64,000 bases of DNA, from NCBI GenBank assembly GCA_038087875.1, contig CM075990.1, forward strand, positions 7,256,001 through 7,320,000. The letters run 5' to 3'. The position numbers were made by a program, and so were the translations under genes. Below are positions 247 to 56,463 of the stretch, piece by piece. The notes beneath the pieces were generated by a model that was given only the letters and a program-made list of their open reading frames with translations, did not search any database and was not told the origin of the DNA. Origin of the DNA: Malacoraja senta (lineage: Eukaryota). Numbering within the stretch: position 1 is the first letter of the stretch; every line of letters starts with the position of its first letter.

Positions 247-662
247 TTGCTGTCCCCATGCTTCAAAGATGTGTACAAGCACTCAGCAAATTCCACTTGA
301 CAAGATTCCAAACAGTGGCAATGCATTCAAATAGAACATTTTCATCATTGTAACATCTTTTGAAAATCTAAATGCATTTGCTTCATTTATGTTTTCCATT
401 GTGATCAATTTCAATCATCCTTCCTGCAGCGTGTACTTTGTTATAGTTACCAGTTAATCTTGTAAAAAAAATATCCAATTTGCTTAAAATATATTTTCAG
501 TTGGCAGGTCCACTGTGAAAAGAAAGTTCAAACTGTGAAAGATTTCAAGGAGAGTGTTATTTTCCCCGTGGTGCACAGTTCCCGTACCCTGTGTGTGAGA
601 GACACTCTCCGAATCAGATTTATTTTCTAGTGTATCTGGGAAGGCACTAATGATCTAGCATT

Positions 663-1397
663 GTTTAAGAAGGAACTGCAGAGGCTGGAACAATCGAAGG
701 TAGACAAAAATGCTGGAGAAACTCAGCGGGTGAGGCAGCATCTATGGTGCGAAGGAATGGGCGATGTTTCGGGTCGAGACCCTTCTTCAGACTGATGAGG
801 GGATGGGAGGGGGGGGGGCGGGAAGAAGAAAGGAAGAGGCAGAGACAGTGGGCTGTGGGTGAGCTGGGAAGGGGAGGGGAAACAGGGAGAAAGCAAGGAC
901 GATCTGGAATTGGCGAAGTCAATGTTCATACCGCAGGGGTGTGAACCACCCAAGCAAAATATGAAGTGCTGCTCCTCCAATTTACGGTGGGACTCAATCT
1001 GGCCATGGAGGAGGCCCAGGGCAGAAAGGTCAGATTCGGAATGGGAGGGGGAGTTGAAGTGCTGAGCCACCGAGAGATCAGGTTGGTTATTGCGGACAGA
1101 GCAGGTGTTGGGCGAAACGATCACCAAGCCTACGCTTGGTCTCAACGATGTAGAGCAGCTGACACCTAGAGCAGCGGATGCAATAGATGAGGTTGGAGGA
1201 GGTGCAGGTGAACCTCTGCCGCACCTGGAAAGACTGCTTGCATCCTTGGATGGAGTCAGGGGGGGAGGTAAAGCGACAAGTGTAGCATTTCCTGCAGTTG
1301 CAAGGGAAAGTACCAGGGGCGGGCGGTGGTTTGGGTGGGAAGGGAAGAATTGACCCAGGGAGTTACGGAGGGAGCGGTCTCTGCGGAAAGCCGACAA
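663..1397 (-). mobile_element. 5'-truncated Penelope-like retroelement (Neptune-type): GIY-YIG endonuclease remnant plus 3' terminal repeat
   Basis: Minus strand 1194-1105 translates NLIYCIRCSRCQLLYIVETKRRLGDRFAQH (GIY-YIG, with YIG changed to YIV). It is preceded by PGTFPCNCRKCYTC (Cys-rich linker) and followed after a frameshift by VAQHFNSPSH...EQHFIFCLG..HPCGMN. Ends in the common terminal repeat. Confidence 0.9.
763..790 (-). ncRNA. Minimal hammerhead ribozyme motif in the PLE 3' repeat
   Basis: Minus strand CTGAAGA-A-GGGTC-TC-GACCC-GAAA-CA-TC. Core CUGAnGA/GAAA/UH with a 5-bp stem II, in sense orientation to the PLE ORF. Confidence 0.7.
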
Positions 1398-1702
1398 GAA
1401 ATAACAAGGAACTGAAGATGCTGGTTTTGTCTGAAGAAGGGTTCCGACTCAAAACATCACCTCAGTGTTCTCAAGATCATTGGTCGGTGCGGAATTGGTG
1501 GCCGAATGGTCTGTTTCCATTGCTGTATCTTTAAACTAAGTAAATTGAAGCTTTTTTTACACAATCATTCTGCAACTGTTCATCAAAGCTTTTGCTCATT
1601 TTCTACCCTAATTAACCCATCGATCAGATGACCTCCAAAGCAAATGTCCACAGCAATCCTATCCTCGCCCTATCACAGATATTCCATTTGTACTAACTAT
1701 CC

Positions 1703-2100: not shown

Positions 2101-2883
2101 TAACTATCCTGTTTTCTCTCTTTCCCAGTGGTGACAATAACTGTGTCTCTTTCCACAGATGCCGCCTGACCAACGGAGTCTTTCCAGCATTTTCTGCTTT
2201 CATTTAATGTTAGATTCATCTATGTAAATATTGAGATTGTAGTTGCAAGCCCTGGTCAACGGGTGGCGATGTGGAACAGGTTTTAGTGACGCCTCCACAA
2301 CGACCACCACTTTTAGTTTTAAGATAGATAGAAAGTGCTTGGGTAGCTCAGCGGGTCAGGCAGCATCTGTGGGGAAAAGGGATGTGACGTTTCAGGTCGG
2401 AACCCTTCTTCAGACCTGTAGGAATCACAGAGGGGGAGCAATGAGAGAGAGTCTCACAGAACTGCTGTTAGAGAAAGAAAAACATCTTCAAAGTAGGCAT
2501 ACCTGGAGGAGATTTTGCTGTGGAGCAGACAAGATGTGGAGGAGGGAACTGCAGATGCTGGTTCAGGATTCACAGAGGAATCCCTTTCCCCAGAGATGCC
2601 GCCTGACCCAGCACTTTGTGTCTATCTTCGGAATAAACCAACATCTGCAATTCCTTCCTATACCACTTTTAGTTCCATTTATGATAAACTTCCTCTTTGC
2701 AGCTTCTCTCCTGCCATTCTATTGGTATTAAAGTATCACCTTAGCATGACAGGGAACAAATAAAAATGACTGGGACCAAGTCACTCATTGTCAACATTGG
2801 GCAGGTCAGAAGTCAGAGATAGAGTTGTACGGCACAGAAACCAGCCCTTCAGCCCATCCAGTCTATCCCAATCAAGTTGACGT

Positions 2884-4316
2884 AGAAAGAGAAAACGGGG
2901 AATTACAGACCAGTTAGTCTAACATCGGTAGTGGGGAAACTGCTAGAGTCAGTTATTAAAGATGGGATAGCAGCACATTTGGAAAGTGGTGAAATCATTG
3001 GACAAAGTCAGCATGGATTTACGAAAGGTAAATCGTGTCTGACGAATCTTATAGAATTTTTCGAGGATGTAACTAGTAGAGTGGATAGGGGAGAACCAGT
3101 GGATGTGTTGTATCTGGACTTTCAGAAGGCTTTCGACAAGGTACCACATAAGAGATTAGGATACAAACTTAAATCACACGGTATTGGGGGTTCAGTATTG
3201 ATGTGGATAGAGAACTGGCTGGCAAACAGGAAGCAAAGAGTAGGAGTAAACGGGTCCTTTTCACAATGGCAGGCAGTGACTAGTGGGGTACCGCGAGGCT
3301 CAGTGCTGGGACCCCAGCTATTTACAATTTATATTAATGATCTGGACGAGGGAATTGAAAGCAACATCTCCAAGTTTGCGGATGACACTAAGCTGGGGGG
3401 CAGTGTTAGCTGTGAGGAGGATGCTAGGAGACTGCAAGGTGACTTGGATAGGCTGGGTGAGTGGGCAAATGTTTGGCAGATGCAGTATAATGTGGATAAA
3501 TGTGAGGTTATCCACTTTGGTGGCAAAAACGGGAAGGCAGACTATTATCTAAATGGTGGCCGATTAGGAAATGGGGAGGTGCAGCGAGACCTGGGTGTCA
3601 TGGTACACCAGTCATTGAAAGTAGGCATGCAGGTGCAGCAGGCAGTGAAGAAAGTGAATGGTATGTTGGCCTTCATAGCAAGAGGATTTGAGTATAGGAG
3701 CAGGGAGGTTCTACTGCAGTTGTACAGGGTCTTGGTGAGACCACACCTGGAGTATTGCGTACAGTTTTGGTCTCCAAATCTGAGGAAGGACATTATAGCC
3801 ATAGAGGGAGTGCAGAGCAGGTTCACCAGACTGATTCCTGGGATGTCAGGACTTTCATATGAAGAAAGACTGGATAGACTTGGCTTATACTCGCTAGAAT
3901 TTAGGAGATTGAGAGGGGATCTTATAGAAACGTACAAAATTCTTATGGGGTTGGACAGGCTAGATGCAGGAAGATTGTTCCCGATGTTGGGGAAGTCCAG
4001 GACAAGGGGTCACAGCTTAAGGATAAGGGGGAAATCCTTTAAGACCGAGATGAGGAAAAACTTTTTCACACAGAGAGTGGTGAATCTCTGGAACTCTCTG
4101 CCACAGAGGGTTGTTGAGGCCAGTTCATTGGCTATATTTAAGAGGGAGTTAGATGTGGCCCTTGTGGCTAAAGGGATCAGGGGGTATGGAGAGAAGGCAG
4201 GTATGGGATACTGAGTTGGATGATCAGCCATGATCATATTGAATGGCGGTGCAGGCTCGAAGGGCCGAATGGCCTACTCCTGCACCTATTTTCTATGTAT
4301 CTATGTATCTATGTAC
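2884..4316 (+). mobile_element. CR1 LINE, 5'-truncated, young
   Basis: Uninterrupted RT ORF 2931-4214, CR1 3' UTR, and (CTATGTAT)n tail. Confidence 0.95.
2931..4214 (+). CDS. CR1 ORF2 reverse transcriptase, C-terminal part (not a host gene)
   Basis: QHGF, YLDFQKAFDKV, GVPRGSVLGP, FADD and RPHLEYCVQFWSP motifs. Confidence 0.9.
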   Translation: MGKLLESVIKDGIAAHLESGEIIGQSQHGFTKGKSCLTNLIEFFEDVTSRVDRGEPVDVLYLDFQKAFDKVPHKRLGYKLKSHGIGGSVLMWIENWLANRKQRVGVNGSFSQWQAVTSGVPRGSVLGPQLFTIYINDLDEGIESNISKFADDTKLGGSVSCEEDARRLQGDLDRLGEWANVWQMQYNVDKCEVIHFGGKNGKADYYLNGGRLGNGEVQRDLGVMVHQSLKVGMQVQQAVKKVNGMLAFIARGFEYRSREVLLQLYRVLVRPHLEYCVQFWSPNLRKDIIAIEGVQSRFTRLIPGMSGLSYEERLDRLGLYSLEFRRLRGDLIETYKILMGLDRLDAGRLFPMLGKSRTRGHSLRIRGKSFKTEMRKNFFTQRVVNLWNSLPQRVVEASSLAIFKRELDVALVAKGIRGYGEKAGMGY

Positions 4317-7097
4317 GTACTGGGCTAATCCCTTTTTCCCGCATTTGGCCTCCAGCACTCTAAACCCTTCCTATCCAAATCTATCTAAATGTCTTTTATA
4401 AGTTGTAATTGTGTGTTGGGCTCTAAGAGACCTGGGCTGTAATTGACACAGTCGGTGTCTCGGTGCTTGCTATATGTCGGATGCTGAAACAAAAACAGAA
4501 AATACTGGAAACACTTAGGTCAGGCAATATCAGTGGAGAAAGAAACAGAGACACAACTCCAGTCCATGATATCTCATCAACCTGCAACATTAATCCTGTC
4601 CCCAGACAACATAGAACGGCACAGAAAAGGACACAAAGTCAGGCACCATCTCTCGGGAACATGGATAAGTGACATGTTGGGTCTCTTTTTCTTGCCATTG
4701 GCCCACATCTCCCAGAAACCCTTCCTATCAATATAGCTGTCCCAATTTTTTTTCAGTCGGAATTGTGCCGAGGCCCGAAACGTCACCTATTCGTGTTCTC
4801 CCGAGTTGCTGCCTGACCTACTGAGTTATTCCAGCACTTTGTGCCTTTTTGTGTATTAACCAGCGTCTGCAGTTCCTTGTATCAATGTAGAATAGTACAG
4901 CACAGGAACTGGTCCTTCCGAGTCCGTGCCGACGACCAACAATCACAATCCTACAGATTAGCAACAATTTACAGAAGCCAATTAACCTACAAAAAGCCCA
5001 CTGTCTGACCCTGCTGAGTTACTCCAGCACTTTGTGTCTTGTTTTGTTGTAAACCAGCATCTGCAGTTCCTAGTTTCCACACGCCCTACTGACGCCTGAG
5101 TTTCGCCATCTGTGACCTTAGTGGAGTAGTTTGAGGTAGAGGAGACCAAAGTTGTCAACTAGAAGCCGGGCAGGGGTATACGACAAAGACACTGTGGAAT
5201 ATTTATAAAACACATTTCAGAAGACCCCGTTTCATTTCTATTCCCGTGACAGCCAATCAATACTTTATTACTGAAGAGATCAATAAATGGGGATTTATTT
5301 CCCCCTTTGGCTTTACCTTTCTGCTGACGGCTGGATCTGATGCATCCGGACAAGGCGGAGGTTTCACGGGCATTGCTACTTCTGAAGACAATTGGTCTAA
5401 TGGGAGTATTCGGGGGAATGAGACATTGCATGTCTCCCGTCCTGCCAGCTTTCAGTTAGTGCAACAAGCGACGCTGTCTGACTGCCTCCGCGAGTTAATG
5501 TTTCATTAGTCTGATCATACATCTTGCAATGAGCTCTCAGCTCCCCCAGCAAGCACGTCCCATTGAAAGGTAGACAGCGCCAGAGATCAGCCAAGCAACG
5601 GCATCTGCAAGGACAGATGCATTGGCTTGTTCTAGTAATGCATTTAACAAACTGCATTCCAACCCGCCCATGTTAATGCTATTCTGTAGGTCGAGGGGGA
5701 CGGGGAGGTGAGGTGAGGTGAGGTGAGGTGGAATGGGAGAGGGAATGATGTGGAGTCTTTCCAACTTGAGGTTTCAGCGCAAGTTCCCGTCTCTTTCAAC
5801 AAGAACAGCTCATTCCACCCTGCCCGCCCGACTGTAAACGCTCTCCACAACTGCAGCCACACTTTAGCCAAGTGACACTTTATTTTTTATTTTTTTTGCA
5901 CACACGTTCAATAGCAGGGATACAAATCACCATTCGCGTCTCAGGAGCAGCAACCTGCAGCTTTGGAAAGGATGCAATGGTCAAATAATAACAAACTGGG
6001 ATGTGTTGGAAGGAACTGCAGATGCTGGTTTAAACCGAAGATAGACACAAGGAGCTGGAGTAACTCAGCGGGACAGGCGGCTTCTCGAGAGAGAGAAGGA
6101 ATGGGTGACGTTTCGGGTCGAGACCCTTCTTAAGACAATGTGATGTATTTAACTGTATCACTGAATCGTACAGCAACCTGCACAATTGTACCAATGCCCT
6201 GGGTCTCAGGTACTGCATTCTAACCCGCCCAAGGTAAATGACAAGGAACAGTCAATATTAAATTGCACGTACCTCTTCTAACCTGCTTAACCTTAGGACT
6301 CAGCATGCTTTCAGATCGCCGTCTTCAGCCTCTGCTCGCTACATCACCTTGTACCATTGCCCCATTGCAGAGCCCCCCACACCACTGAGAAACCGTGGTG
6401 CCATCCACTCTCGCGGACAGCCCAGGAATGATGTCTCGCATCCAGCTAAATAAACGCTGATGCATTATTTATCCAGCCCTGAATTAATTCTGCTCCAAAC
6501 GAACCATTAAGTACTTGAGAGATTACTGTCGATAAATCACCGGAGCGCGCATCAGGGGAGGACGGTGGATCTCTTTTCCTAATTGGCCCGTGACCAGTGT
6601 GTTATTAATATACCTTTGATATGACACTGGCAGCACTCGTTCATTGTCCTGCTAATGTAAGCTGTGACTGCGCCACAAATCGAATCAATGGGCTCTCTGC
6701 GTACTCAGTGCCGACAAGTCCAGACGGGGACACAGAGATCAGGGTGGACAAGGCTGCGTCGTGCAAGGAGGAACACTCAAATCATCCCTAGTCGTGAGAG
6801 GCGTGTGTTTTCTCATCTACTTTGTTGGATTGCAGCTGAAAGGAATACCTGTACCTCTTGCTTTAGTGGATGTGAGAAGTTGCTTTCTTTATTTTCTTGG
6901 CATATCTTGGTGTCTGGTTTCCTCCTGGAGCTACCAATATATCCACATTCAATTGGCAGCGCAAAACAAGGCCCTGCGGCACAAATGGTCCATTGTAATG
7001 TTTGTGTTGCAGTTGAGCCTCTTCCCTCCCTAGTTCATCCGGCCCAACATCACATATCTTTCTCCCCACATTACAAAAGTCCTTAGTTTTCCTAATG

Positions 7098-7417
7098 TGT
7101 AGGAAGGAACTGCAGATGCTGGTTTACACCGAAGATAGACATAAAATGCTGGAGTAACTCAGCAGGACTGGCAGCATCTAATCAGAGAAGGAATAGGTGC
7201 CGTTTCGGGTCGAGAACCTTCTTCGGTCTGAAGAAGAGTCTTGACCTGAAACTACCCATTCCTTCTCTCCATAGATGCTGCCAGTTCCACTGAGTTACTC
7301 CAACATTTTACGTCTATCTTCAGACTGAAGAAGGGTCTCGACCCGAAACATCACCCATTCCTTCTCTCCAGAAATGCTGCTTGTCCTGCCGAGTTACTCC
7401 AGCATTTTGTGTCTATC
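7098..7417. mobile_element. PLE terminal-repeat cluster: one inverted arm plus two tandem arms
   Basis: Arm about 7098-7225 is inverted relative to 7226-7320 and 7321-7417. Hammerhead core at 7325-7352. Confidence 0.8.
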
Positions 7418-7494
7418 CTTACCTTTCCTGTTGGTCTATTTACCTCAATTACTCATGTGGGTGACTTCCACATCTTCATCAGTCAAAAGGGATG

Positions 7495-7730
7495 AGGATC
7501 ATCGCATAATGACCATACCTTGGCTAAGTTGCTTCATATCGTAACCCTTCATTGGCTAAGGAGCATCGCATCCCAACCATTCACTGGGTGAGGAACACCA
7601 TACTTTAACCATTCATTGGCTGAGAAACATCGTATCCTCACCATTGATTGGCTGAAGCGCATCACATTGTAACCAATCATTGGGAAAGGGGGTCACATCG
7701 TGACCATCCACTGGGTAAGGTGTATCGTGG
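7495..7730. repeat. Decayed ~33-bp tandem repeat
   Basis: Recurring CATCGCAT...ACCATTCATTGGCTGAG-like units, about 6-7 copies. Confidence 0.6.
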
Positions 7731-8349
7731 AATCTCCAATATCCACACTTAATCTCATTCACTTGCAGTTTATCCACCAAAATGGCATGCAATAAAACGT
7801 TACATGAGCTATCTCCTCCGCACAGAAGACACGAACCATCAGTCACCTTCTGTCTGATATAAATCTGTCTGGTAGCACACACACACAAAAAGACGCAAGC
7901 TCAATTTATGTTGTTTGAATTAGACTCATTTTCAGTCTGGTGCCTGAGGTCCTGATGTAAAAGCCAAGGCCAAAAAATGTAGGGATTTGTAATTATCTTT
8001 CAATGCCCATAGCCAAAGGGCAACCATAAAATAAAGTGCAAATGGGAGATGGGAGAGAGGAACTCAAGCTTTCATTAGCAGGGATAATAAAGGCATTTCC
8101 ATGTGTTGTTGAAGTCGTTCCAAAGGAACCACACTTCTGATTTTCCAGTGCAGCAAACAATAAAATGACGGTACATTTATTTTCATAATATCTCCATGGA
8201 CTGATGTGTTATTATGTTTTGTTTCTCGGTTCTATGCATCACAATTTTGCAAGCATAAGGAGTTCCACAGATAGAATAATTACAGAGTTTTGTATAGAAA
8301 GAGAATATTTAGCCCGAGTGTTTTATACTAGTGTCAATGTCCACAACTT

Positions 8350-8815
8350 TTGTGCGTTAACCTTCATCAGTCAAGGTATTGAGTATAGAAGTTGGATCGC
8401 TAGGTTATCGTTGTAGAAGACATTAGCGAGGCCGCATTTAGAGTGTGGCGTACAGGTCACACTGCCGTAGGAAGGACATCTTTAAGCTGGAAAGTGGGCA
8501 GAGATTTATGAAGACCACGAATGTCCTTTTACCTCTCCATGTTATCCAACTCTATTGGCATACCTTGCCTTTCATCAAGCCTTTGTCAATTAGGCAATGT
8601 GCCAGGACTCAAGGGCTTGAGCTACAGGGAGAGGTTGTGCACGTTAGGACTTTATTCCTCGGAGTGCAGGTGGCTGAGGGGTGCAAACTCATGGGGGAAA
8701 CAGATAGGGTGAATGCACAGAGCCTTTTACCCAGGGTTGGAGAATCAAGAACCAGAGGACACGGGGTTAAGGTGAGAGGGGCAAGAATTAGCAGGACCCT
8801 GGGGGGCAACATTTA
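8350..8815 (+). mobile_element. Degraded CR1 fragment
   Basis: GLSYRERL..LGLYS and ESRTRGH motifs in broken frames. Confidence 0.75.
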
Positions 8816-8882
8816 CAATCTCCAAAGCAAGGAAAACCAACCCAACTCTCCTTATAATTGAGACAGTCCATCCTAGGCAACA

Positions 8883-9065
8883 CAAAATGCTGGAGTAACG
8901 CGGTGGGACAGGCAGCATCTCTGGATAGAAGGAATGAGTGACATTTTGGGTCGACCCAAAACGTCACCCATTCCTTCTATCCAGAGATGCTGCCTGCCCG
9001 CTGAGTTACTCCAGCATTTTGTGTCTATCTTCAATGTAAACCAGCATCTGCAATTCCTTCCTACA
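8883..9065. mobile_element. Palindromic PLE terminal-repeat insertion with TSD
   Basis: Fold-back centred on GGGTCGACCC (8948-8957). TSD CATCCTAGGCAACA at 8869-8882 and 9066-9079. Confidence 0.85.
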
Positions 9066-10980: not shown

Positions 10981-11231
10981 GATATCCACTATAGTGCCAT
11001 CAAGATGGGCAATCCTTCCAAGCAGAGTGCTATTGGGAATGCTATGACCATCCCATGAGAACTGATGTTGGATGTGGACAAAGAATCTATACCTTAACCA
11101 TTGGTCAATGAGGGCTTTCTAGTATCTTTGATTGAAGTTCCAGACAAGACCCAGACTGAACCCAGACCCAAAAGGGTTAAGGAAGAGTACACAAATATGA
11201 ACAGGAGATATCATTTCATTATCGTTGCAAA

Positions 11232-13519
11232 GACTCTAGATTTATTGTTCACTTCTCACCCAGATTTAATTTCGGAAGTTTCATCGTGTGCTGGAATTAG
11301 CGATCATTATATTATCCAAGCAAAACTGCACACAAAGCTTAAAGTTCCTTCAAAGCCACCGCGTAAAATTTCCCTCTGGAGAAAAGTGAACAGCGAGGAA
11401 TTTAAAGTCTTAGCAAAAAAACTGGGAAAAGATTTCTTCAACCTGCAACCAGATAAAAGATCCGTAAATGACAACTGGGTGTGGCTGAGAAACTCTTTAA
11501 ATAATATTGTTACAAATCATGTTCCTCAAAAACTCATTAAGGGCCGTATGTGTCCTCCTTGGTTTTCGGCAAAACTGAAACGTCTCTGCAGTAAGAAAGA
11601 GAAGTCTTATATCCGTACCAAACAAAGGGGTACAAAACTGGACTGGGACAATTTTACTAGAGTGCAAAAGCAAGTCGATCGTGCTATTAGGAGTGCTCAT
11701 AGACAACATGTTTCTTCTATTCTTGGGGGAGAGCAACCCAAGGCTTTTTGGAGATATGTGAAATCCAGATGGACAGACAACACTGGTGTCCAGATGCTGA
11801 AAGTGAACAACTGTCTGATCACTGAGGACCAGGCGAAAGCAGAAGCTCTTGCCAACCAATTCCAACACGTTTTCACCCGGGAAGATATGGAGCCTTCATC
11901 ATTTCCAGTTCTACCGCCCAGCCCGTATGCTGATATGCCTGCTATTAAAATTGAGGTTGAAGGTGTCAAGAAATTATTGCTCAACATCAATACCACAAAA
12001 GCAATTGGACCAGATCAGATACAGAATCAAACCCTCAAGATCGCGGCCGAAGAACTGGCTCCAGTTTTGCAGTTCATTTTCCAACAATCGCTTGACTCAG
12101 GTGATGTTCCGCTGGATTGGAGGAAGGCTAACATCACTCCTCTCTTTAAGAAGGGTTCAACCACCAACCCAGCGAATTATCGTCCTGTTTCATTAACAAG
12201 TACTTGCTGCAAATTACTGGAGCATGTAATTGATAGTAATCTGATGCGACACGTGAGCAAACATAATATTCTTGCTGACAACCAACATGCATTTAGGAGG
12301 CATAGATCATGTGAGTCTCAGCTTATCCTGACGACAAATGACCTGGCCAAACATCTTGATGGTAATGTCATCACGGATTTAGTAGTGCTGGACTTTTCTA
12401 AAGCATTTGATGTCATCCCACACTGCTTCGGAAGCTTGACTTCTATGGTATTCGTTCCAACACGAAACGATGGATTTCCAGTTTCCTGACAAAACGTCTT
12501 CAGCGTGTGTGTGTCAACGGAAAGAGCTCCAATTGGCATCCAGTGTTGAGTGGTACACCTCAGGGCACAGTACTTGGCCCACATCTGTTTTTGCTTTACA
12601 TAAACGACATCCATGAAAAAGTCGCAAGCACGACCAGACTATTCGCTGATGATTGCTTGCTGTACCGTCCAATTAAGTCAGCTGATGATGAAGATGCTCT
12701 CCAAAAGGACCTCAATACAATGGTTGAGTGGTCACACCAATGGGGCATGCAGTTCAACCCTTCCAAATGTGAAACCATGCGTGTCACCAGAAAGAGGCGT
12801 CCAGGCAAAACATTGTACAATATACTTGGTACCACCCTTGAAGAATCCAAACAAACCAAGTATCTTGGCATCAAATTGCAGAATGACCTGCGTTGGAATG
12901 GTCAGACTCATCATGCAACGGTGAAAGCAACAGGTGTCCTAAATTTTCTGAGGCGCAACTTTCATCATTGTTCAACTTCTGTCAAGGAGAAGTTATACTT
13001 CACCCTCGTTAGACCTCATTTGGACTACGCAGTTGCAGCATGGGACCCATACACAAATAAAAACATTTCTTCCATCGAACGTGTCCAAAGACAGGCAGCT
13101 CGATTTGTTACTAACACCTATGAGAGAGAAGCGAGTGTTACCAAACTTCTGAACCCTCTCCAAGACAGACGTGAAGCTCACCGTTTGACCTGTTTTTACA
13201 ACATGTTAAATGGTCAGCTCAACATAAATTACAAGACCTACACCAAACCCAAACCAATTAGGAGCAGACGAGGACATTCGATCCAATTTGAGATTCCAGC
13301 TGCCAAGACAGATGTGTACAGCAATTCATTCTTCCCCCGCACAATTAAAGCATGGAATAATCTTCACCCTACCATAGTGACCCAACTAGATGCAACTAAA
13401 TTTAAGGTAGCTCTTTCTTCCCAAAAACTCTTTCTGGCTTAAGTCCACCCTCCACCACCTCCAGTTTAAATTCCATTTGGAATATTTTGGAGGACCAAGA
13501 AACCAAGAAGAAGAAGAAA
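11232..13519 (+). mobile_element. Divergent CR1-group LINE: end of APE domain plus RT, one frameshift
   Basis: LDLLFT..ISDH (APE end), NYRPVSLTS, LDFSKAFD, PQGTVLGP, FADD, SFFPRTIKAWNNL. Frameshift near 12421 joins ORFs 11101-12489 and 12507-13442. (AAG)n tail at about 13505-13519. Confidence 0.9.
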
Positions 13520-14112: not shown

Positions 14113-14562
14113 AATAACTTCTACTTTGATTGCCAACTTTCACACCGAATGTACAGGAGTATTACTGTGAAAATAAATGCAAGCAGCTTTGGTATTCTTC
14201 TTATTCAACAGAGGTCTCAAATAGTCTCGAAGCAAATGCAGTATTTGTTAACAGTTTTAGGAACAAGTCACCAACCACTCCTTTACATTCATGTAACGTG
14301 GCTTATTCTACAGAGAGTGCATGTGAGAAAGAAAGTGAGAATTGATTGAAAGTCATTCAAAGTGGATTGGTGGGAAGCAATGGATTCATTTCCCACTACT
14401 GACCAACCATGCACAAGAGTGCATGTTGTGGTCAACAAAAATAGCTCAGTTCCGAATCTGTGACTCAGTCTTGATCTAATTTGATTGCATTGTGTCATAC
14501 ATATGCTCATTCCTTCATATCTCCATATTCTCAAGCGAGAATAGTCAAGGAAGATACAAAGT

Positions 14563-14590
14563 CTGAAGAAGGGTCCTGACCCGAAACGTC
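14563..14590 (+). ncRNA. Intact minimal hammerhead motif in a PLE terminal repeat
   Basis: CTGAAGA-A-GGGTC-CT-GACCC-GAAA-CG-TC. Confidence 0.7.
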
Positions 14591-15623
14591 ACCTTTCCAT
14601 GTTCTCCAGAGATACTGCTTGACCCGCGGAGTTACTCCAGCACTTTGTGTCATTTTATTTAGGTCCTTGCATCCGCAATAGTTAAGGAAGCTCCTGCTGT
14701 GGGGATATTCAAAACCCAGTGTGAAATATCACTGCTCCAGTTTCTTATTGAACCAGTAAACAACTTTGCACAATACCACAGCATAAACATCTGCAATTCT
14801 CATAGGAACAAACTGCGCCTTGTGCAAGCAAATTGGCTTCCAGCGTCTAAGCACTTTCATGTTCTTATCCCCCCAAACAAGCTCACATAAGTAGACACAA
14901 AATCTCTGGAGAGAAGGAATGGGTAACGTTTTGGGTTGAGCCCCTTCGAGATCCTTCTTCCTCTTTCACATAAGTAGAGGTGGTAGCCACTATACAGCCC
15001 ATAATACAATCAGGATATATTATTTCAGAATGAGCAGTATCAGTGCTTGCCCTATGTTTGCATTGATTGCATAATCCTGCCACCAAAGAACCAAGTCTAG
15101 ATGTAAACTCCTAGTGTCAGTGTGAAGAAGGGTCCTGATCTGAAACTTCACCCGTCCATGTTCTCCAGGGGTGCTACCTGTCCCACTGAGTTACTCCAGC
15201 ACATTCCATCTTTTATTTGAAAACCAGCATCTGCAGTTTCTTGATGTAAACTCTTTGATCATGAAGTTGTGGCTGTCGAATCTGGAGTCAATCATTCCAG
15301 GAACTGATTTGACATCAAGGCAGACTCCAATGAACTGAATTAATAGTTGTTGCATATTAATAAGGTGTATTGGCTGGGAAATACATCCATAAATTGTAAT
15401 GGGTGTTCCTCGACTCAGACGGTGGCTTGAATAGTTGAAAGCAGCCTGTTCTAATTTGACCGGTATATACAGTATGTGTGTTTATATTGCAATGGTAATA
15501 CACAGCAGAGACACGTGTTGTGCTGGCTTCCATCCCAAGGTCAGAAATGGGTGCTTAACTTCAGTGTTTAATCCCATTCACACCTCCTCAGCAAATTAAG
15601 TAGTTCACGATACCATATGGTAC

Positions 15624-16888: not shown

Positions 16889-17213
16889 GGGCGGCATGGT
16901 GGCACAGCAATGGAGTTGCTGCCTTACAGTGCTTGCAGTGCCAGAGACCTGGGTTCGATCCCGACTACGGGTGCTGTCTGTAAGGAGTTTGTACGTTCTC
17001 CCCGTGACCGCGTGGGCTTTCTCGGAGATCTTCGGTTACCTCCCACACTCCAAAGACGTACAGGTTTGTTGGTTAATTGGCTTGGTATTAGTGTAAAGTA
17101 TCCCTAATGTGTGTAGGATAGTGTTAATGTGCAGGGATTGCTGGTCGGTGCAGGCTCGGTGGGCCGAATGGCCTTTTCCCGTGCTAAAGCTCCAATCTAA
17201 ACTACACTAAACA
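16889..17213 (+). mobile_element. tRNA-derived SINE (HE1/V-SINE-like)
   Basis: GGCATGGTGGCACAGC head, B box GTTCGATCC, (TAAAC) tail. Confidence 0.85.
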
Positions 17214-18258
17214 AAACTCAGCGGGCCAGGCAGGAATGGGCGACGTTTCGGGTTGTGATCCTTCTTCAGAGCTCACCAGTACAGAACTTTCACTGCAAAC
17301 GTGAAGGAAGATCAGGGATCATCAGGTAGCATTTAAGATCCAAGAGTGTTGAATGACACTTCAGGTCCTAATTTTCCTGCTTGATTTTAATGCAGATGCA
17401 GCTGCTTCAGGTAAATCAAGGTTACAGCAGAGGATGGACAAACCTGGATTAGGATCTCTGGAGCATCGGAGGCTGGGGTGACTTGATAGAAGTGTATAAA
17501 ATTATGGTCGGCATTAGACAATTTAATTTGTGGGAGACTGGCAGATCCCACCATGGTAGATAGTAATCAGAGACTTTCTCTCAGGATGGCATAGCTTAAA
17601 GGTGAGAGAAGGACACTACAAAGGAGATATGTGAGGTAGGTTTTTTCATATAAAGCATGGTGGGTGTTTGGAACATGCTGCCAGACGAGGTGGGACAAGC
17701 AGATGTGAGAGCCGCGTTTAAGAGATATTTGACAATGTTTGGTGGAGAAGACGATGGGCCGAATGGCCTAATTCTGTCCTATCACATATGGACCGATGAC
17801 ATAGATATACACATGAACAGGCAGGAAATAGAGGGATATGGGTTTTACGTAGTGAGATGAGGTTAGATTGACATCATAGTTGGTGCATATGGTGAGCCAA
17901 AGAGCCTGTTGTGTTTTACTGCGCTATGTCTATAGTTTGTTTATGTTGCACCTCCGTTAAACAGAGGTTTAATTTTTACAAATTGTACATTTAATTTTAT
18001 TTTACATTTGCGAATAGCAGATGGAACTGTGGAATAACTGCTAAACTGGGACAGTAAATGAGTGTGAAAATCACACAGGTTGGTCTATTACATTGCTAAT
18101 ATGTGTCTTAATATGTGCTCAGTTTTGATTGACGCCTCATACAAATATGTTAGCTTCAGCTTTGAAAACATCAACTGATCCATGGTTCAAGGAGGATATT
18201 TGCCTCTAATGCCCAACGATACTCACGTGAGAATATTGGACATCATTTACATTGAAGT

Positions 18259-18764
18259 TACAGAGAAAGGTTGAACAAGTTAGGTCTTTATTCTTTGGAG
18301 CGCAGAAGGTTAAGAGGGGACTTGATAGAGGTCTTTAAAATTATGAGCGGGTTAGACAGAGTGGATGTGGATAAGCTTTTCCCATTGAGAGTAGGGAAGA
18401 TTCAAACAAGGGGACATGACTTGAGAATTAAGGGACAGAAGTTTAGGGGGAACATTAGGGGGAACTTCTTTACTCAGAGAGTGGTAGCTGTGTGGAATGA
18501 GCTTCCAGTGGAAGTGGTGGAGGCAGGTTCGATGTTATCCTTTAAAAATAGATTGGATGGGTATATGGACGGGAAAGGAATGGAGGGTTATGGTCTGAGT
18601 GCAGGTAGATGGGACTCGGGGGAAGTATTTTATTTTTAATTAAAAAAAAAAATTTAAAAAAAAATAATAATAATAATAAAAAAAATTTAATGTTCGGCAC
18701 GGACTTGAAGGGCCGAGATGGCCTGTTTCCGTGCTGTTATGGTTATATGGTTATATGGTTATAT
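18259..18764 (+). mobile_element. CR1 3' fragment
   Basis: ORF 18271-18639 LGLYSLERRRLRGDLIEVFKI and (TATATGGT) tail. Confidence 0.9.
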
Positions 18765-20662: not shown

Positions 20663-21001
20663 GGTGGCATGGTGGGGCAACGGTTACAGCTCTGCTTTAC
20701 AGCGCTGTAACCGTTGCTGCCTTCCAGCGCTTGCAGGGCCAGAGACCTAGGTTCGATCCTGGCTATGGGATGCTTGCCTGTACGGAGATTGTATGTTCTC
20801 CCTGTCACCGCGTGGGTTTTATCCGAGATCTTCGGTTTCCTCCAGCACTCCAAAGACGTAGAGGTTTGTAGGTTGATTGGCTTGGTACAAATGTAAAAAT
20901 TGTCCCTAGTATGTAGGATAGTGTTGATGTGCGGGGATCGCTGGTCGTTCGGACTCGGTGGGCCGAGGGGCCTGTTTCCGCGCTGTATCTCTAAACTAAA
21001 C
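20663..21001 (+). mobile_element. tRNA-derived SINE
   Basis: B box GTTCGATCC, central domain, TAAAC tail. Confidence 0.85.
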
Positions 21002-21309: not shown

Positions 21310-22560
21310 ATAGAACGTAAATCATAGTGCAGCACAGCAACAGTCCCATCGCCCCACAATGTTTGTGCTGAACACGATGCCTCGTTAAAATGATCTTATC
21401 TGCCAGTGCATAATCCATATCCCTCTATTCCCTGCAATTCCATGTGCCTATGCAAGAGCTTCTAAAACACCAATATCATATCTGCTTCCATCACCACCGC
21501 TGGCAATGTATTACAGGCCCCCACCCTCTCTGTTGCTTGCTCTGCACATCCTCATTAAACTTTCCCCTCACATTATAGCTATGTTATACCCTCTAGTGCT
21601 GGGCATTTCCACCCTGAGAAAATGTGTCATCCATTTAAGCCTCTAATAATTGTTTATGCTTCATCGAGTCTCCCCGCAACCTCCAACATCCCAGAGAAAC
21701 CAGTCCAAGTCTATACAACCCATTGTGTTTAAGAAGGAACTGCAGATGCTGGAAAATCGAAGGTCGACAAAAGTGCTGGAGAAACTCAGCGGGTGCGGCA
21801 GCATCTATGGAGTGAAGGAAATAGGCAACGTTTCGGGCCGAAACGTCTGGAGAAGGGTTTCGGGCCGAAACGTTGCCTATTTCCTTCGCTCCATAGATGC
21901 TGCCGCACCCGCTGAGTTTCTCCAGCACTTTTGTCTACACAACCCATCTCTGTAGCGGAAACCCTCTAATCCAGGCAACATTCTGTAAACCTCCTCTGGA
22001 CGCTTCCCAGAGCCTCCACATCTTTCCTGCAATGGGGCAACCAGAACTGCATGCAATACTCCAAATGTGGCCCAACCAAAGTCCTATCGAACTGCATCAT
22101 AACTTCTTGGCTCTTGAATTCAATGCCCCTAGCAATGAAGGCAAGCTCAACATACGCCTTCTTTACCACCCTATCTACTTGTGCTGCCATCTTTAATTGC
22201 ACTGAACTTTGACTCCAAGATCCCTCTCCACATCAATGCTGTTAAGGGTCTTTCCATCAACTGTATACTCTCTTGTTATATTCAACCTTCCAAAGCTGTC
22301 TGTGTGGAGTTTGTACGTTCTCCCTGTGACCTGCGTGGGTTTTCTCCAAGATCTCCGGTTTCCTCCCACATTCCAAAGACGTACAGGTTTGCAGGTTAAT
22401 TGGTTTGGTAAGTGTAAAAATTGACCCTCGTGGGTGTTATGTGCGGGGATCGCTGGTCGGCGTGGACTCAGTGGGCCGAAGGGCCTGTTTCTGTGCTGTA
22501 TCTCTAAGCTAAACTAAACTAAACCTCACACTTGCTCGGGTTAAAGTCCATCTGCGATTT
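21310..22560 (-). mobile_element. Degraded CR1 interrupted by a PLE palindrome and a SINE fragment (22295-22523)
   Basis: AFIARGIEFKSQEVM..PHLEYCMQFW at 21966-22202. Confidence 0.8.
21724..21938. mobile_element. Palindromic PLE terminal-repeat insertion with TSD
   Basis: ~74-bp inverted arms 21763-21836/21865-21938. TSD ACAACCCAT at 21715-21723 and 21939-21947. Confidence 0.85.
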
Positions 22561-23965: not shown

Positions 23966-26632
23966 ATTTCAGCACCACCAATCGTCCCCTCTCTTCACTT
24001 GCAAAGTGTCTGCAAATATATATATATATATATATTTTTTTGCCTTGCACCATTGTGCCTGAGAGTGCTGAGCATTTTTAATTGCACACAAACCGTCAGA
24101 TAAAATCCATACATCTACAAGTGCACTATCTGAGTGGACTGCCCAGATCATCAAATGATTCTTCCCCAACCTTTGGGGACTGCTAATGATTATTATGGAA
24201 ACAACCAATTATCTTGATGTCACTAAGACTGCCAGCGAGTCCATCTCATTACTTTCCATCTTTCCGATTAGAAGGGACTTCCAGTGATTTATTTGAATGA
24301 TTTCTTTATCTACATAACCCACCTGCTTCATGAATGAGGCATTATCTTTGCCTCAGGGCGTGGAAATGGGAAAGGTGTGTCTGTGCACTCTGCAGCTGAT
24401 AAGTTGATTGTTGCGTTTGTGGCTCCACCATTGTGGTAAAGAACGGCAGGTGAAGAAAGAAAGTGCATCATGTAAGTTAAGAAACAGTAAGACAGGTACA
24501 TCGATAGACACAAAAATATGAGTAACTGAGCGGGACAAGCAGCATCTCTGGAGAGAAGGAATGGGTGAAGTTTCGGGTAGAGACCCTTCTTCAGATCGGA
24601 AACGTCACCCGTTCCGTCTCTCCAGAGATGCTGCCTGTCCCGCTGAGTTACTCCATTCTTTTCGTGTCTATCTTTGATTGAAACCACCATCTGCAGTTCC
24701 TTCCTACATGGTACGTGGATAGGACAGGTTTGGAAGGGTTATGGACCAAATGCAGGCAGGTGGGACTAGTGTGGCTGGGATATGTTGGCCAGTGTGGGCA
24801 AGTTGGGCCGATAGGCCTGTTTCCACACTGTGCCAGTCTATGACTATTATATACTTACACCGCACAGTATCTCCGGCAGGAACTTGGCAAATTAAGCCAT
24901 CTACTACTTGGCCCTTGGGCAATGGTCAGCCTTCTGTGATATAAATGGCATCCCTGGGCAGATGTTGTATGGGATAAAACCCACCCACAAACCAGATGAA
25001 AATTATTGTCAGATAAGTAAACAAACTTCGCTTAGATAAACCAATCAAAACAAAAAGGATGTTTCTCATTGTTTTAACGAGTAATTATCCAAATTATTAA
25101 AGTGTGAAAAAGCATTGATTACTTTTAAGGAATAATAATCTGAACAAAGGTATTGGAATAAACCAACAATGAGTCCACACAGAGACAAGCAACCACAGAT
25201 GCTAGAAGCTTGGACCAAAATAACAAATGCACAGAGAAACTCGATGGGTCAGGCAGCATCTGTGGAGGGTATAGACAGGTTACATTTTGGGTTGGACTCT
25301 TCTTTGGACACTTGAATAGGGAAGAGTAAAGTTATGTGGCTGTAGTAGTGAGTCTCAGCCAGAATGTGGTAGAACTGCAGGAATCACAGAGGGTGAGCAG
25401 TCAGAGAGGTCCTCACAAAACTACCGGAGAGAGAGGAGAATTTCTCTTCAAAGATTTCACAGTCGATCAGTAAAATGGAGATACAAGGAACTGCAGATGC
25501 TGGAATCTTGAACAAAACATGAAGTGATGGAGGAACTCTGTGAGTTAGGTAGCATCTGCGGTGGGGATGGATAGCTGATGTTTCGGGTCGGGGCCCTTCT
25601 TTAGACTGATTGTAGTATTGGTGAAAGTTTCAAGCTCCTACCCCAGTAACATTACAATTAAAACACAAAGTACTTGTGCTATAACGCCAGGATAAGCGCT
25701 TAACTAAGAAAACCAAGCCCAAAGCCAAAGTATTATCTATCTAACTAAATATACCAACTGACAATAAATAATTCCGTATGCAAAAAATAACCCAGCTACC
25801 TACATGTTAATTAGCTCTTAAAAAACCCAAATCCTGTAGATGCAAGTATATGTTTGGGGTTATCACGTGGGCACCTCCCTTCATTGGTGTTTCATTGAGT
25901 TAGGCCCACGACACCTCAGGAAGGCTCAACAGTTCATTCAGGCGTCCCAGAGGGGCCTGTTTCCTCCCTCCCTCCTTCCTTCCTTCTTTCCTTCCTCCGT
26001 TCTTCCCTCCCTCCCTCCCTCCCTCCTTCCTTCCCACCATCCTTTCTTCCCTCCCTCCCTCCCTCCTGTAGTCATAGTCAGGATCAAACCCGGGTCTCTT
26101 GAGTATCAGGACATTCTTGTTCGAATGCAACCAGCATTATACCATTAGCTTCAATTCAAACACTGCCGATGCCCAATAAACCATTACTGCAGTATCATGC
26201 TGTTTTGTACTTCATCCAAATTAAACATTAAAGAGCTGGCCCAGAGTGTAAATGTTTTTTTTAAAGAATTAAATCAATTATTCCATTTTTCATGAGCATA
26301 TTTTATTTGTTTGCTCCGCTTGCAAGTTTGCATCCAGCTGCTGGCTTAGCAGGAACTACTTATAAATGTATCAGCAATTTTGTGATCTGTTCAAAGATAT
26401 TTGTTTCCCTGAAATGCTGATCAGCAGACTATGGGTCAAATGGAGCAGCAAGTTCATGATCTGGCTTGATCAGATCTAGGATACATGTCAAGGTGTAGGA
26501 TATAACCTCTGGAGCATCACCTTTGGTTAAACCATCACTATAACAACATTTAAAAGGTTTTTGGACAGATACATGGATACAGGTTTAGAGGAATATTGAC
26601 CTATGGATGTGGGTAGGTGTGACCAGTGCAGT

Positions 26633-33498: not shown

Positions 33499-34619
33499 TG
33501 GCAGGAATGAGTTCCGTTTTAGGTCGCGACGTTTTGGGTCTGAGGAAGGGTCTTGACCAGAAACGTCACACATTCCTTCTATCCAAAGATGTTGCCTGTC
33601 CCGCTGAGTTACTCCAGCATTTTGCGTCTTTCTTCATTACAATGAAAGGGATGTTGCTCACCAGAGAGCCATTGGCTCATGGCTGAAATGGCTTGGTGGG
33701 TTTCAGCGACAAAGAAATTACCTTTGGAGATCAAAAAGCAAAGACCCTTGGAACTATGACACTGTTTGCTGAACCATCACTGTGGATCACTGTGAGATAT
33801 AGTGTTTGGTGAAACTTTGGAAATGTCGTATATTTTCTCCTCTCCAGAATATTTTTTACGAATTGCAACAATGCATCATGGCACTAAGCTCAAATACAGG
33901 AAACAAATCGTTTTAACTTGTATTTGAATTATCCATTTGAGTGCAGGCTACATCTTTCTTCGTGACATGTTGATTTTGTTAGTCTGCACGGTTATTGTTT
34001 TAGTGCTAATTATGAGAAACAGGCACATTTGTCAGACATATCTCAGCCCATTGTGCGTTGTTCTTTGACTCTTTGGGATGAAGCAGTCCTATGATAAACA
34101 TTTGGATGACAGATTCTATTGCCTGCACAATATAAATGAATGCTGTGCAATGGAATTATATCTGACAAACATCTGCATGATTTTCCAAAGCATGATTTAC
34201 TCCCAATTCCCCCAGGCAAGTAAGTGATGTGCTTATATAACAGACATATTCCTGCCCTTTGTCCACCATGCAGGTACACAGACAATCACTCTGATTGAAA
34301 CACTTGCACTTCTTCCATGTTGGAGTAATGAATTCAATGGCTTTGATGTGCTCTCCTCTGCAGTGGAGTAATCAAATGCAGATTGGTGACCGATTTGCAG
34401 AACCCTTCTGCTCAGTGTAGAGTGGTGACCTTGACCTTCCAGACAACTCTCACTTCAATTCCGCTTCCCACTTTCATGTTGACTCCTTTGGCTTTGACCT
34501 ACATCGCTCCAACCATGCCCAACACAAACTTGAGGAGCAGCGGCTTATTTTCCATGTGGGTGCTTTGCAATGGATTAAACTCTCAGGTAATCTCTCTTTC
34601 TCACTCTGCCTTTTGCTCC

Positions 34620-35045
34620 CTACTTCCTCTCTTTTTCTTCCCTTCCTTTCCTCCTCTTCTTCTTCCTCTCCCTTCCCCCCTTCTTTCCCCCCTCCTCACC
34701 CCTCCACCCCCTCGTCCCCCCCTTCCCCTCCCCACTCCTCTCACACTCACCCTCCCCCCTCCCTCCTTCCCCCTCTCCTCGCCCTCCTTCCCCCCTCCTC
34801 CCCCTCCCCCTCCATCCTCCCCCTCTTCTCCCCCTCCCCCCTGCTCCCCCTCCTCTCCTCTCTCCTTCCCCCCTCCTTCCCCCTCCCTCCTACCCCCTCC
34901 CTCCTACCCCCAACCTTCTCCCCCTTCCCTCCTCCTTCCCCCATCTTCCCATGCCTTCCTTCCCTCCCGTCTCCCCCTCCATTCTTCTCCACTCTCCACT
35001 TTGCCCTCTTCCCCTCTCCCCACTCCTCACCCCTCCCCCTCTAGA
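34620..35045. repeat. Polypyrimidine/polypurine low-complexity tract
   Basis: Almost pure C/T on the + strand. Confidence 0.95.
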
Positions 35046-36162
35046 CATGGCTGCACCATTCCATTTCCTTTTTTTTTCTTTTCTGTCTCCAAGTTCCTGT
35101 TTTAAAAGTAATTGTTAGCTTGACCACATTGGTGTGCGGACTCTCACAAACAGTTCCTCTATTCTCCACACTCAGTTTCTCCCTGTAACCTAGAACATGC
35201 CTGTTCTCTCATCCTTCCAATTCTGATGAAGGGTCCTTGACCTGACGTGTCATTTGTTCCCTCTCACCAATAAAAGATGCTACTTGACCTGCTGAGCACT
35301 TCCTGCATTTTATTATCATGTTTCCAAACCGTATAGTTCTGCCTGCCACATGAATAATGGATACTGTCACTGCAAATTTCCCTGCCTGCTATAATTGAAA
35401 GAGAATTTATTTAAAGGCTGGGCCTAAAGAATCAGTTTGGTTATGCTGCTTTTTCTCAGCCCATTTCAGAAAAAATAACAATACAATGCCCATGCAAAGG
35501 GATGATGGATTCTTAAGTACAAATTACATTCAACACAACTCAAGCTTCTGCAACCTTTTATCCTCGGGGTTGTCCTGGGTTGAATTCATCACCATTTGGA
35601 ATTTAATCAGCAGCTTCCATTTATAAGGTTGCTCAAGATCCCTCACAGGAGAATTACCAAACAAGGTTCAGGTAGAGAGTGATGGGATGAGGTGGCCAAA
35701 TGCTTGGTTAAAAGTCACAGATGATGCATCTACAGGCTTTAGACACATAGTGTGGAACTAGGCCCGTTGGCCTACCGTGTCCACGTCGACCGGAAATCTT
35801 CCTGCACACTAACGTTATTCTGCACACTATATGGCCAATTTACCGTCTTGGCAATGTGGGAGCAAACTGGAGCACGGCCACAGGGAGAACGTACAAACTC
35901 CGTGGAGACAGCACCTGTAGTCAGGATTGAAGCCGGTTGCTGGTGCTGTAAGCCAGCAGCTCGACCATTGCGCCACTGTGCCGCATCTTAAAGAGAGGTA
36001 GAGAATTCAAGAAAAACAAATCCTGAACTTTGAACCTGGGCAGTTGATTGCCAAGGATGGAGCGATTAAATTTGTACTAGAATTAGATGTCAGTGCAAAG
36101 ACCATCGAGCTTCTGAAAATTAAACCAATCGCTTGATGGTCTAATTCTTCTAACTGGTCACA

Positions 36163-39600: not shown

Positions 39601-40241
39601 GATACCGTTAAACCAATCTCCTCAGTCTGAACTTGTTCCATATTCCTCCGTAACCCTCCATTCCCTGCATATCCATGCACCTTACCAAAAGCCACTTCAA
39701 TGCCACTATCTTATCTGTGTCCACCACCACCAACCCTGGCAGTGCATTCATGGCACCCACCACTCTTGAACCACCACGTATCTCCTTTAAGCTTTGCCCC
39801 CCTCTCACCTTAAAGCTATGCCCTCTTGTGTTTGATATTCCTCTCCTAGGGAAAATGTTCTGACCATCGACCCTATCTATGCCTCTCATAATTCTATATA
39901 CCTCTGTCACGTTTCCCCCCAGCCTCTAACATTTGAAAGAAAACAATCCAAGTCTGCCCAACCTCTCTCTTGCAGCTAATCCCCTCAAAACCAGGCAGCA
40001 TTCTGGTAGACCGGTTCTTCAGCCTCCACGTCCTTCACGTCCTTCCTGTAAGGGGGCGACCAGAATTGCACAAAATACTCCAAATGCGGCCTAACCAACA
40101 TGACTTCCTGACTCGTTTACTTACAGCTAACAATGGCCTGTTTCCTTTATCATCGTTGCTCTTTTGCATATCTTTTATTCATTGTTCTTTACCTCTCCAC
40201 ATCATCGTCTATATCTCTTGTTTCCATTATACCTAACCAGT

Positions 40242-40269
40242 CTGAGGAAGGGTCTTGACCCGAAACGTC
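40242..40269 (+). ncRNA. Intact minimal hammerhead motif in a PLE terminal repeat
   Basis: CTGAGGA-A-GGGTC-TT-GACCC-GAAA-CG-TC. Confidence 0.65.
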
Positions 40270-41149
40270 ACCCATTCCTTCTCTTCAGAGATGCTGCCTG
40301 TCCCGCTGAGTTACTCCAGCTTTTTGTGTCGATCTTTTACTTATCGCCCCAGCGAATGAATGCATGTCTACATGTGTTGCCACTTTTAGGAAGTGATGGG
40401 CTTGGACCCCAAGACTTGGTCTCTTTTACTTCAGTGACCTCTACACCGTCAACTCCCACCAGCTGCACACTGCAGTAATCCCCCTGGTCATCAAACACAC
40501 TGAAGAGTATGATTTTTATTTTTTGATTACATGGTACATGGGCTAGTGACATTATTCTGCTGCAAACATCTCCTCGTGGATTACATTTCTGTTTCCCGCA
40601 GGCATTGTTTGTTGCTTGGCAAACAAACACCTCCCACAAAGCCTGAGTGTGTGAAATGTGCCAAGCTATTTTACTTATCTGGAGATCATCTTTTCCACAT
40701 AATTTGGCTCTCAGGGCAGGATTCCCATTTAAAAAGGCTTATAAATGAAAAAAAAAGGGAAATGCATGCTGCTAATATCTAATGGAATGAACAGTAGTTC
40801 TGATGGGCACTTTTAAGCTGTGTTTCCTTTCCAGGGTAACGCGCACAGAAGCTTTTCTGCACCTGTTCTCATGCCACAACAGGCTTCTGGCAGCTTCCTG
40901 ACTGGAACAGAGCACAGTATTCCAAATGTGGCCTGACCAATGTGTAGGAAGGAACTGCAGATGCTGGTTTAAACTGAAGATAGACACAAAAAGGTGGAGT
41001 AACTCAGCGGGACAGGCAGCTTGTCTGGAGCGAAGGAATGGGTAACGTTTCAGGTCGAGACCCTTCTTCAGGCCAATGTCTTGCACACTTGTAGCACATC
41101 ATCCCAACACTTGTACTTGAGCACAGAAGCACTGAGGTCATCTGACAAT

Positions 41150-56226: not shown

Positions 56227-56463
56227 AAGTCAGCTTTGTGATTTGGGGAGACATCGCCATCTAATGGGTCTGGCTGCTTCCTACAACACGTTTTCCTGTT
56301 TCATTCTGAGGAGGATCAACATGAGAAAAACATGTTGCAGCTTCTTTGAATTGAAGGAATCTGCTTTCCATAAATATATATTAGGTTTAAACGAGGGAAT
56401 TTAATTGGTGGCGTGCACCAGTAAATGTGGAAATAAATTCCCCAATTCACATTTCTTGCTTTA

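Follow-up and report, generated by a model that had tools for sequence, protein, structure and literature searches.

Near the start of the window, by which the whole 64,000-nt stretch of Malacoraja senta DNA analysed here is meant, a broken endonuclease frame lies close to a short repeat that recurs throughout the stretch and opens with a hammerhead-like motif. The locus raises the question of what this repeat is and whether its motif could cut RNA. A first-pass annotation had proposed a ribozyme-bearing terminal repeat of a Penelope-like element (PLE), placing many potential cleavage sites in host introns. The repeat is very probably the pseudo-LTR (pLTR) of a Neptune-type PLE with a minimal type I hammerhead motif, its 57 matches in the window being likely dead, 5'-truncated insertions that decay neutrally.

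The Neptune-type endonuclease remnant

At about 1400-894 on the minus strand lies the broken remnant of a Neptune-type linker and GIY-YIG endonuclease (EN), 5'-truncated and frameshifted (delimited as 894..1399 by tblastn, the homolog search, the alignment and read depth). Its pieces align to homologs at 1393-1304, 1314-1102 and 1103-876 (minus strand, tblastn), with the frameshift near 1102, and RNA read depth in a run from a related organism drops at about 1405, the edge of the remnant. Among 13 proteins the best match is that of Leucoraja erinacea (82%), ahead of those from other rays, further eukaryotes and gar. The remnant reads YIV where the aligned homologs have YIG and its pieces gave no Pfam match, while PF01541 (GIY-YIG) was matched by 7 of the 13 aligned EN members (best E 4.7e-5); the C-terminal GIY-YIG endonuclease of an EN+ PLE is present by homology.

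A CX4CxxC linker precedes the EN at about 1296-1270 (minus strand), within the CX2-5CxxC pattern described as a mark of Neptune and Nematis elements (PMC8557442). Because the copy is without a reverse transcriptase (RT), which tblastn found neither in the truncated EN copy nor in the whole window, the Neptune label rests on the EN and the linker; an RT-like region lies upstream of the EN in several homologs. One predicted protein of the little skate (P0014) consists of a LINE RT piece fused to a Neptune EN homologous to that of the window, and in two others (P0002 and P0005) an EN is joined to host-gene domains (DUF4518, zf-3CxxC), as exonisation or annotation artefacts.

The first-pass annotation described the GIY-YIG remnant as running directly into the repeat. 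The remnant is real, but a pyrimidine-rich 3' UTR of about 100 nt (793..893, minus strand; pyrimidine fraction 0.91 in the sequence) stands between the two and ends in CAG, the G of which is hammerhead position 2.2. Beyond the other edge of the remnant, an inverted 5' junction at 1405..1463 combines what is left of a tail at about 1405-1428 (minus strand) with part of a decayed hammerhead at 1429-1463 (plus strand). A second EN locus (34241..35313, plus strand) holds an older EN remnant (34241-34603), a pyrimidine tract and, downstream in the same orientation, a decayed hammerhead-bearing repeat (35223-35313). The order EN, 3' UTR, motif, pLTR and tail is found at these two independent loci.

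The repeat as a pseudo-LTR

In an iterated nhmmer profile the repeat spans 123 positions and has 57 matches (29 minus, 28 plus), which cover 5458 bp, or 8.5% of the window, at a density of about one match per 1.1 kb. A family of SINE-like repeats of about 250 nt, which by eye are probably of tRNA type, has 17 matches covering 3221 bp (3-249, 16895-17152, 20699-20947, 27497-27744 and others), and the hammerhead-bearing repeat is indeed the dominant short repeat of the window. The copy next to the EN remnant (662..792, minus strand; profile matches and tblastn) has a body of about 100 nt and a tail of about 25-30 nt. The family has two 3' ends, about 25 nt apart, with 27 of the 57 matches reaching the tail, 24 stopping at model positions 88-103 and 6 ending elsewhere.

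Ten head-to-head pairs were found, and in nine of them the tail is present on exactly one arm (binomial p=0.011 against a coin toss). Such pairs lie at 8879-9059, 21734-21938, 24500-24702, 31691-31909, 37293-37491, 44524-44675, 54112-54290, 55761-55899 and 55981-56233. The insertion signature described for PLEs is an optional tail of 30-40 bp, often at one end only, together with an inverted 5'-truncated copy (PMC8557442); both traits are seen here, the tail being the shorter at about 25-30 nt. The two 3' ends, the one-tailed pairs and the second EN locus argue for a pLTR rather than a SINE landed by the EN. With the EN adjacent twice, the tails, the inverted pairs and the fit of the consensus, the earlier proposal that a SINE-like repeat is in fact a PLE terminal repeat bearing a hammerhead motif is upheld, and this identity can be held with high confidence.

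The head-to-head pairs would form long RNA hairpins, and they give spurious matches to Rfam miRNA families. By eye, several of their junctions coincide with the palindrome of stem II or with short GTC repeats in the motif, which would fit template switching.

With regard to the 5' ends, the edge of the motif is the start of 31 of the 39 copies that reach the core: 18 begin there abruptly, with unrelated DNA upstream, 12 after an inverted arm and 1 in tandem, the other 8 having the pyrimidine tract. No match among the 57 begins at model positions 29-33, where the cut site lies, and this, together with the starts at the motif edge, points to insertions made from uncleaved RNA.

The sharp 5' edge would also be explained by a non-autonomous element consisting of the pLTR only, a master of SINE-, MITE- or retrozyme-like kind that the Neptune protein would copy in trans. 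The abundance of abrupt starts relative to copies that keep the pyrimidine tract, the inverted arms and the tandem copy are compatible with such a master, as are loose RNA read ends that cluster at 792-795 in the related organism's run and a summed contig depth that is several- to tens-fold greater in the repeat than in the EN and does not measure copy number; moreover, retrozymes have been reported as pLTR derivatives (bioRxiv 10.64898/2026.07.22.740005). Nevertheless, the junctions vary by copy and the tails stand at one end only, which suggests that they arise at insertion and do not belong to a fixed master, and PLEs are commonly truncated at the 5' end down to the length of a pLTR (PMC8557442). 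In a retrozyme, moreover, two or more complete motifs would follow one another in a tandem array, and no such array occurs in the window. The only dimer-like arrangement there is a 98-nt tandem pLTR pair at 7226-7422, which together with an inverted tailed copy occupies 7104..7422 (profile matches); both its motifs are decayed, the GUC site being incomplete in the first unit and helix I missing from the second. The layout of this stretch is otherwise retrozyme-like. A non-autonomous master is on balance doubtful, and truncated insertions of a Neptune element are preferred.

Fit and decay of the hammerhead motif

The motif occupies the first ~32 nt of the repeat. In the copy beside the EN it lies at 761..792 (minus strand) and comprises a 2-bp helix I, CUGAAGA plus an A, a 4-bp stem II and GAAAC; its palindrome has decayed (G16.2 to A), and the cut is predicted between 763 and 762. 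Under a strict test only 2 of the 57 copies are intact, both of them solo pLTRs on the plus strand, at 14561..14679 (motif 14563-14590) and 40240..40342 (motif 40242-40269).

All six motifs reported in the first pass were recovered on their strands, although their state needs some revision. Of the three called intact, those at 14563 and 40242 are so, but in the third (2386-2413, minus strand) the G10.1-C11.1 pair has decayed to G-U; of the three said to show CpG decay (763, 7325 and 57687), the last two form 0 bp of helix I.

The descriptor was coded from Cervera and De la Pena (PMC4209133), with 200 dinucleotide shuffles as the null. Freed of helix I it has 9 matches in the window, while the shuffles average 0.08 and never exceed 2, and with a helix I of at least 2 bp it has 4 against 0.01; with at least 3 bp, as published, there are 0 matches in the window. 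The helix I of the family has 2 bp, one of them A-U, and had already been recognised as short. Helices of 2 bp are found in published members from Drosophila, Culex and Oikopleura (PMC4209133) and in 50 of 128 metagenome motifs. Since such exceptions are published, the lack of a 3-bp helix I marks a short-helix form and does not exclude the family from the class.

These counts also bear on whether an unrelated SINE was inserted by chance near the EN remnant and carries the motif as a chance match. One copy per kb makes adjacency cheap, but the orientation and the pyrimidine spacer are alike at the two EN remnants and at a metagenome locus described below (L067), the copies bear the tail and inversion signature, and the Rfam scan of the window placed no tRNA match on the repeat. 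Set beside the excess over shuffles, this leaves the coincidence largely refuted and scarcely credible.

The core letters CUGANGAH, the G10.1-C11.1 pair, GAAAN, the palindromic 15.2/16.2 and the NUH site are present in the family majority and in the copies at 14563 and 40242. Helix II, with 4 bp and a 4-nt loop when the loop is required to have at least 3 nt, is within the range of 3-7 bp and 3-10 nt. Among the features called independently emerging in this class (the families per genome, the base between 9 and 10.1, G10.1-C11.1 and the palindromic 15.2/16.2; PMC4209133), the last three are found in the family majority. The extra A after A9 had been likened to a viroid hammerhead, a parallel that is not needed, as such a base is described as the rule for the PLE class (PMC4209133).

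Stem II is paired, per position, in 33-38 of 39-41 copies. It had been described as staying paired while its loop varies, and loop columns 15 and 16 do vary outside CpG; the pairing, on the other hand, amounts to invariance plus G-U wobbles. The loop variants CU and UU involve a CpG and probably arose by decay. The CpG columns of the motif are 71-82% conserved, and in the related organism's RNA the majority letters are intact where the copy at 761..792 is decayed (3963 of 5840 at 765 and 3382 of 5661 at 762), so that the majority reads restore the palindrome at 765. The Rfam check that had been suggested returned no hammerhead among the 19 matches at E up to 5 in the window. Rfam also misses the known-type motifs in metagenome loci L067, L004 and L012, and because L067 is a positive control, the blank is uninformative.

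Conservation and metagenome relatives

A motif scan of about 1/64 of a metagenome collection yielded 123 loci, none of which had an nhmmer match to the repeat of the window, and PLE-like protein similarity was seen at 6 of the scanned loci. At L067, an EN 51% identical to that of the window is followed 121 nt downstream by a hammerhead motif that equals the published Acropora digitifera Neptune hammerhead in core and stems; this layout and the compensatory changes support common descent and the Neptune label. A separate search for relatives in metagenomes found 0 among 263 candidates, and viral contigs gave 1 weak match (L001, 32%). By estimate, about 11,000 metagenome stretches carry the same minimal hammerhead pattern. 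Loci L002-L124 are dominated by two main families, with a 4-bp and a 7-bp stem II, and the latter has stem II variants that look compensatory.

Covariation was assessed in an alignment of 13 hand-picked window copies, of the 57, and a single L067 row. Two compensatory pairs appear, in the comparison with L067 only (one in helix I, one in stem II), a number reached by 49 of 500 shuffles. No compensatory change was seen among the window copies, and the covariation check proposed for stem II therefore finds nothing within the window family.

The other check put forward, in which a core no more conserved than its flanks would speak against a ribozyme, showed only a slight difference: after correction for end trimming the core is 89% conserved and the flank 84%, with p=0.097, which is not significant. 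An initial value of 94% against 84% (p=0.0006) had been inflated by end trimming in the local alignments and was discarded. Columns with non-CpG variants at a frequency of at least 20% number 1 of 24 in the motif outside the loop and 9 of 61 downstream, and they include both of the two non-CpG columns of the loop, a pattern that fits constraint and is not significant alone.

These data leave some room for a relic motif, without catalysis, that persists in some other function, for example in protein binding, as a promoter or as a splice signal. The 2-bp helix I with its A-U pair and a competing hairpin would suit a relic, and so would the lack of matches starting at the cut site. For the Anolis element, furthermore, insertion in vitro is reported not to need cleavage, and the site is marked by no read ends (PMC11167929). 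On the other side, the catalytic-core letters are all kept in the family majority and are common to L067 despite 49% EN divergence, and 2-bp helices recur in the published insect and Oikopleura members and in the metagenome motifs named above. A dead relic is possible, if unlikely, and catalytic activity of the motif in a master element has, as judged from the sequence, a little better than an even chance.

Folding, RNA and host transcripts

The active-compatible fold of the monomer is predicted to be 3.2-13.5 kcal/mol less stable than alternatives in which the CUGA core is paired, its partner lying about 10-20 nt downstream or in another part of the sequence. Core pairing is likewise predicted for the metagenome motifs (0.53-0.75) and is for that reason not special to the skate family. 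Minimal hammerheads lack a stable helix III; their single motifs are reported to show no cleavage and their dimers to cleave weakly (PMC4209133), with which a review passage concurs (PMC6765202). Any self-cleavage here is predicted to be weak.

In poly(A) RNA of the related organism the repeat is abundant, about equally on both strands (13,117 of 7,335,232 records placed). No pile-up of read starts or ends was seen at the cut site, a weak test in one fragmented poly(A) library of that organism, and no RNA reads cross the 15 joints listed of 407. A host gene domain was found in none of the 309 ORFs of at least 62 aa (309/309 scanned), a scan that would miss short exons; it returned three LINE RT matches and one sub-threshold, TE-like ALKBH8_N match.

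The first-pass annotation had envisaged many cleavage sites in host introns. Since the ORFs reveal no host gene, the introns are not borne out for this window, and the notion of many sites fares no better: only two copies are intact, helix III requires a second copy, the one tandem is decayed and no RNA ends mark the cut site. The idea that solo genomic copies cut host pre-mRNAs in introns draws on the density of the repeat, its abundance in RNA on both strands and the two strictly intact copies. Both of these copies are solo, however, and the published single motifs do not cleave; the competing fold, the flat read ends in a library that tests them weakly, and the missing host gene point the same way. 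Activity at many such copies is accordingly improbable, and meaningful cleavage of host RNA is most unlikely.

A pyrimidine tract and/or CAG stands directly before the motif at 790-830 (minus strand) and also upstream of 40240, 2415 and 25606. The tract and the CAG that supplies helix I look, from their letters, like a candidate 3' splice site, the use of which would alter helix I. In the Penelope of Drosophila virilis the end of an intron maps to helix I (PMC4209133).

A bolder combination would make skates and rays the holders of the densest known vertebrate hammerhead-motif family, with about a million pLTRs if the window is typical, an extrapolation to genome size from this one window. The motif would then be a gated ribozyme, its core held off by the downstream hairpin and switched on by splicing at the CAG or by the protein of the element, and the small intact fraction would cut host transcripts in trans-dimers; published screens would have missed the family because its helix I is 2 bp. 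As a joint claim this is a long shot, and dead, truncated insertions of a Neptune element are the reading retained.

Proposed mechanism

In the mechanism proposed for these insertions, the RT-EN protein of the element would have two internal sites at which to start reverse transcription, which would give the two 3' ends, and would copy uncleaved RNA. On reaching stem II or the 5' edge of the motif, the RT would usually stop or change template, leaving solo and inverted pLTRs. Selection on active master elements may keep the motif for the processing of tandem transcripts, in which cleavage of the master motif after GUC would be weak, would require a dimer and would probably be helped by a protein, a step proposed by analogy with the Anolis element. 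Solo genomic copies would be dead on arrival and would rarely cut host transcripts.

Other features of the window

LINE-type ORF remnants lie at 2886-4211 and 11098-13439 (RVT_1 matches) and, by eye, at 18256-18636, 45886-46464 and 60296-61495. The stretch at 50100-50350 looks like a decayed protease region of an LTR retrotransposon. A match to the CPEB3 HDV-like ribozyme at 50273-50306 (plus strand) reached 24.2 bits against a threshold of 35, covered 34 of 78 positions (13-46) and was treated as chance. A 29-bp minisatellite of about 18 copies (57100-57630) abuts the 3' end of the pLTR copy at 57634-57715.

Comparison with known systems

In 2014 Cervera and De la Pena (PMC4209133) described minimal hammerheads in Neptune, Poseidon and Xena PLEs of fishes, along with dispersed copies that number in the thousands in coelacanth and Xenopus. 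The genome-wide dispersal of thousands of such motifs, fish Neptune PLEs included, is thus already in print, which takes away the novelty implied in the first pass. The skate family resembles these metazoan motifs (PMC4209133) in its CUGANGAH core, the extra base before stem II, G10.1-C11.1, GAAA, the palindromic 15.2/16.2 and NUH, in its position 3' of the EN, in consisting mostly of dispersed single motifs of truncated elements, and in that some motifs lie close together on opposite strands. It departs from the descriptor given there in a helix I of 2 bp instead of 3 bp, with 2-bp exceptions listed in the same source. Its density (57 in 64 kb) extrapolates far above the 4,000-9,000 descriptor hits per genome of that study, counts that were made differently. 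Table S1 and the extracted rows of Fig. S3 of that paper contain no cartilaginous fish.

Retrozymes of the non-LTR type (PMC7229834; bioRxiv 10.64898/2026.07.22.740005) are similar in that they too are short repeats which bear a type I hammerhead and are akin to pLTRs; they form tandem arrays with complete motifs, whereas the window has dispersed or inverted copies and a single 98-nt tandem pair, which is decayed. The 2026 preprint records retrozymes and PLEs from a range of vertebrates, among them one chondrichthyan, in whose genome retrozymes have a mean consensus of 363 bp (bioRxiv 10.64898/2026.07.22.740005), and PMC7229834 holds no 'shark' passage. No published description of the skate or ray family was found in the literature searched on Penelope elements and hammerhead ribozymes in cartilaginous fishes; motifs from sharks or skates may be among those of Lunse et al. 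2016.

In Anolis carolinensis, the Poseidon element PAc (Frangieh et al. 2024, PMC11167929) likewise has a hammerhead in its pLTR and shows no RNA-seq ends at the cut site. Its tail lies between two RT start sites and is thereby optional (PMC11167929), and the window element shares the optional tail and the two 3' ends. Unlike the window element, PAc belongs to the Poseidon clade, in which the zinc-finger linker is absent. Its hammerhead is described as cleaving only with the protein of the element and as dispensable for insertion in vitro (PMC11167929), and this is the one element in which the role of a PLE hammerhead in insertion has been tested.

A close counterpart is the Acropora digitifera Neptune hammerhead (PMC4209133) with L067: the EN is homologous, with CX4CxxC and 51% identity to L067, and the systems share a spacing of 105-120 nt from the EN end to the motif, a 4-bp stem II, a 4-nt loop and CGUC at the cut site. 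They differ in helix I (3 bp there, 2 bp in the window), in two compensatory pair changes and in the downstream pLTR, which has no detectable nhmmer similarity to that of the window.

These comparisons allow the most frequent short repeat of the window to be relabelled as a Penelope terminal repeat, and they extend PLE minimal hammerheads to a skate or ray genome in a 2-bp helix I form. The abundance of the family permits population-scale tests, such as intron orientation bias between intact and decayed copies and the positions of 5' and 3' ends. Taken against the published systems, the family is mildly new in its lineage, in its density and in a helix I that, at 2 bp, goes undetected by the published descriptor, and the system to which it belongs is a known one.
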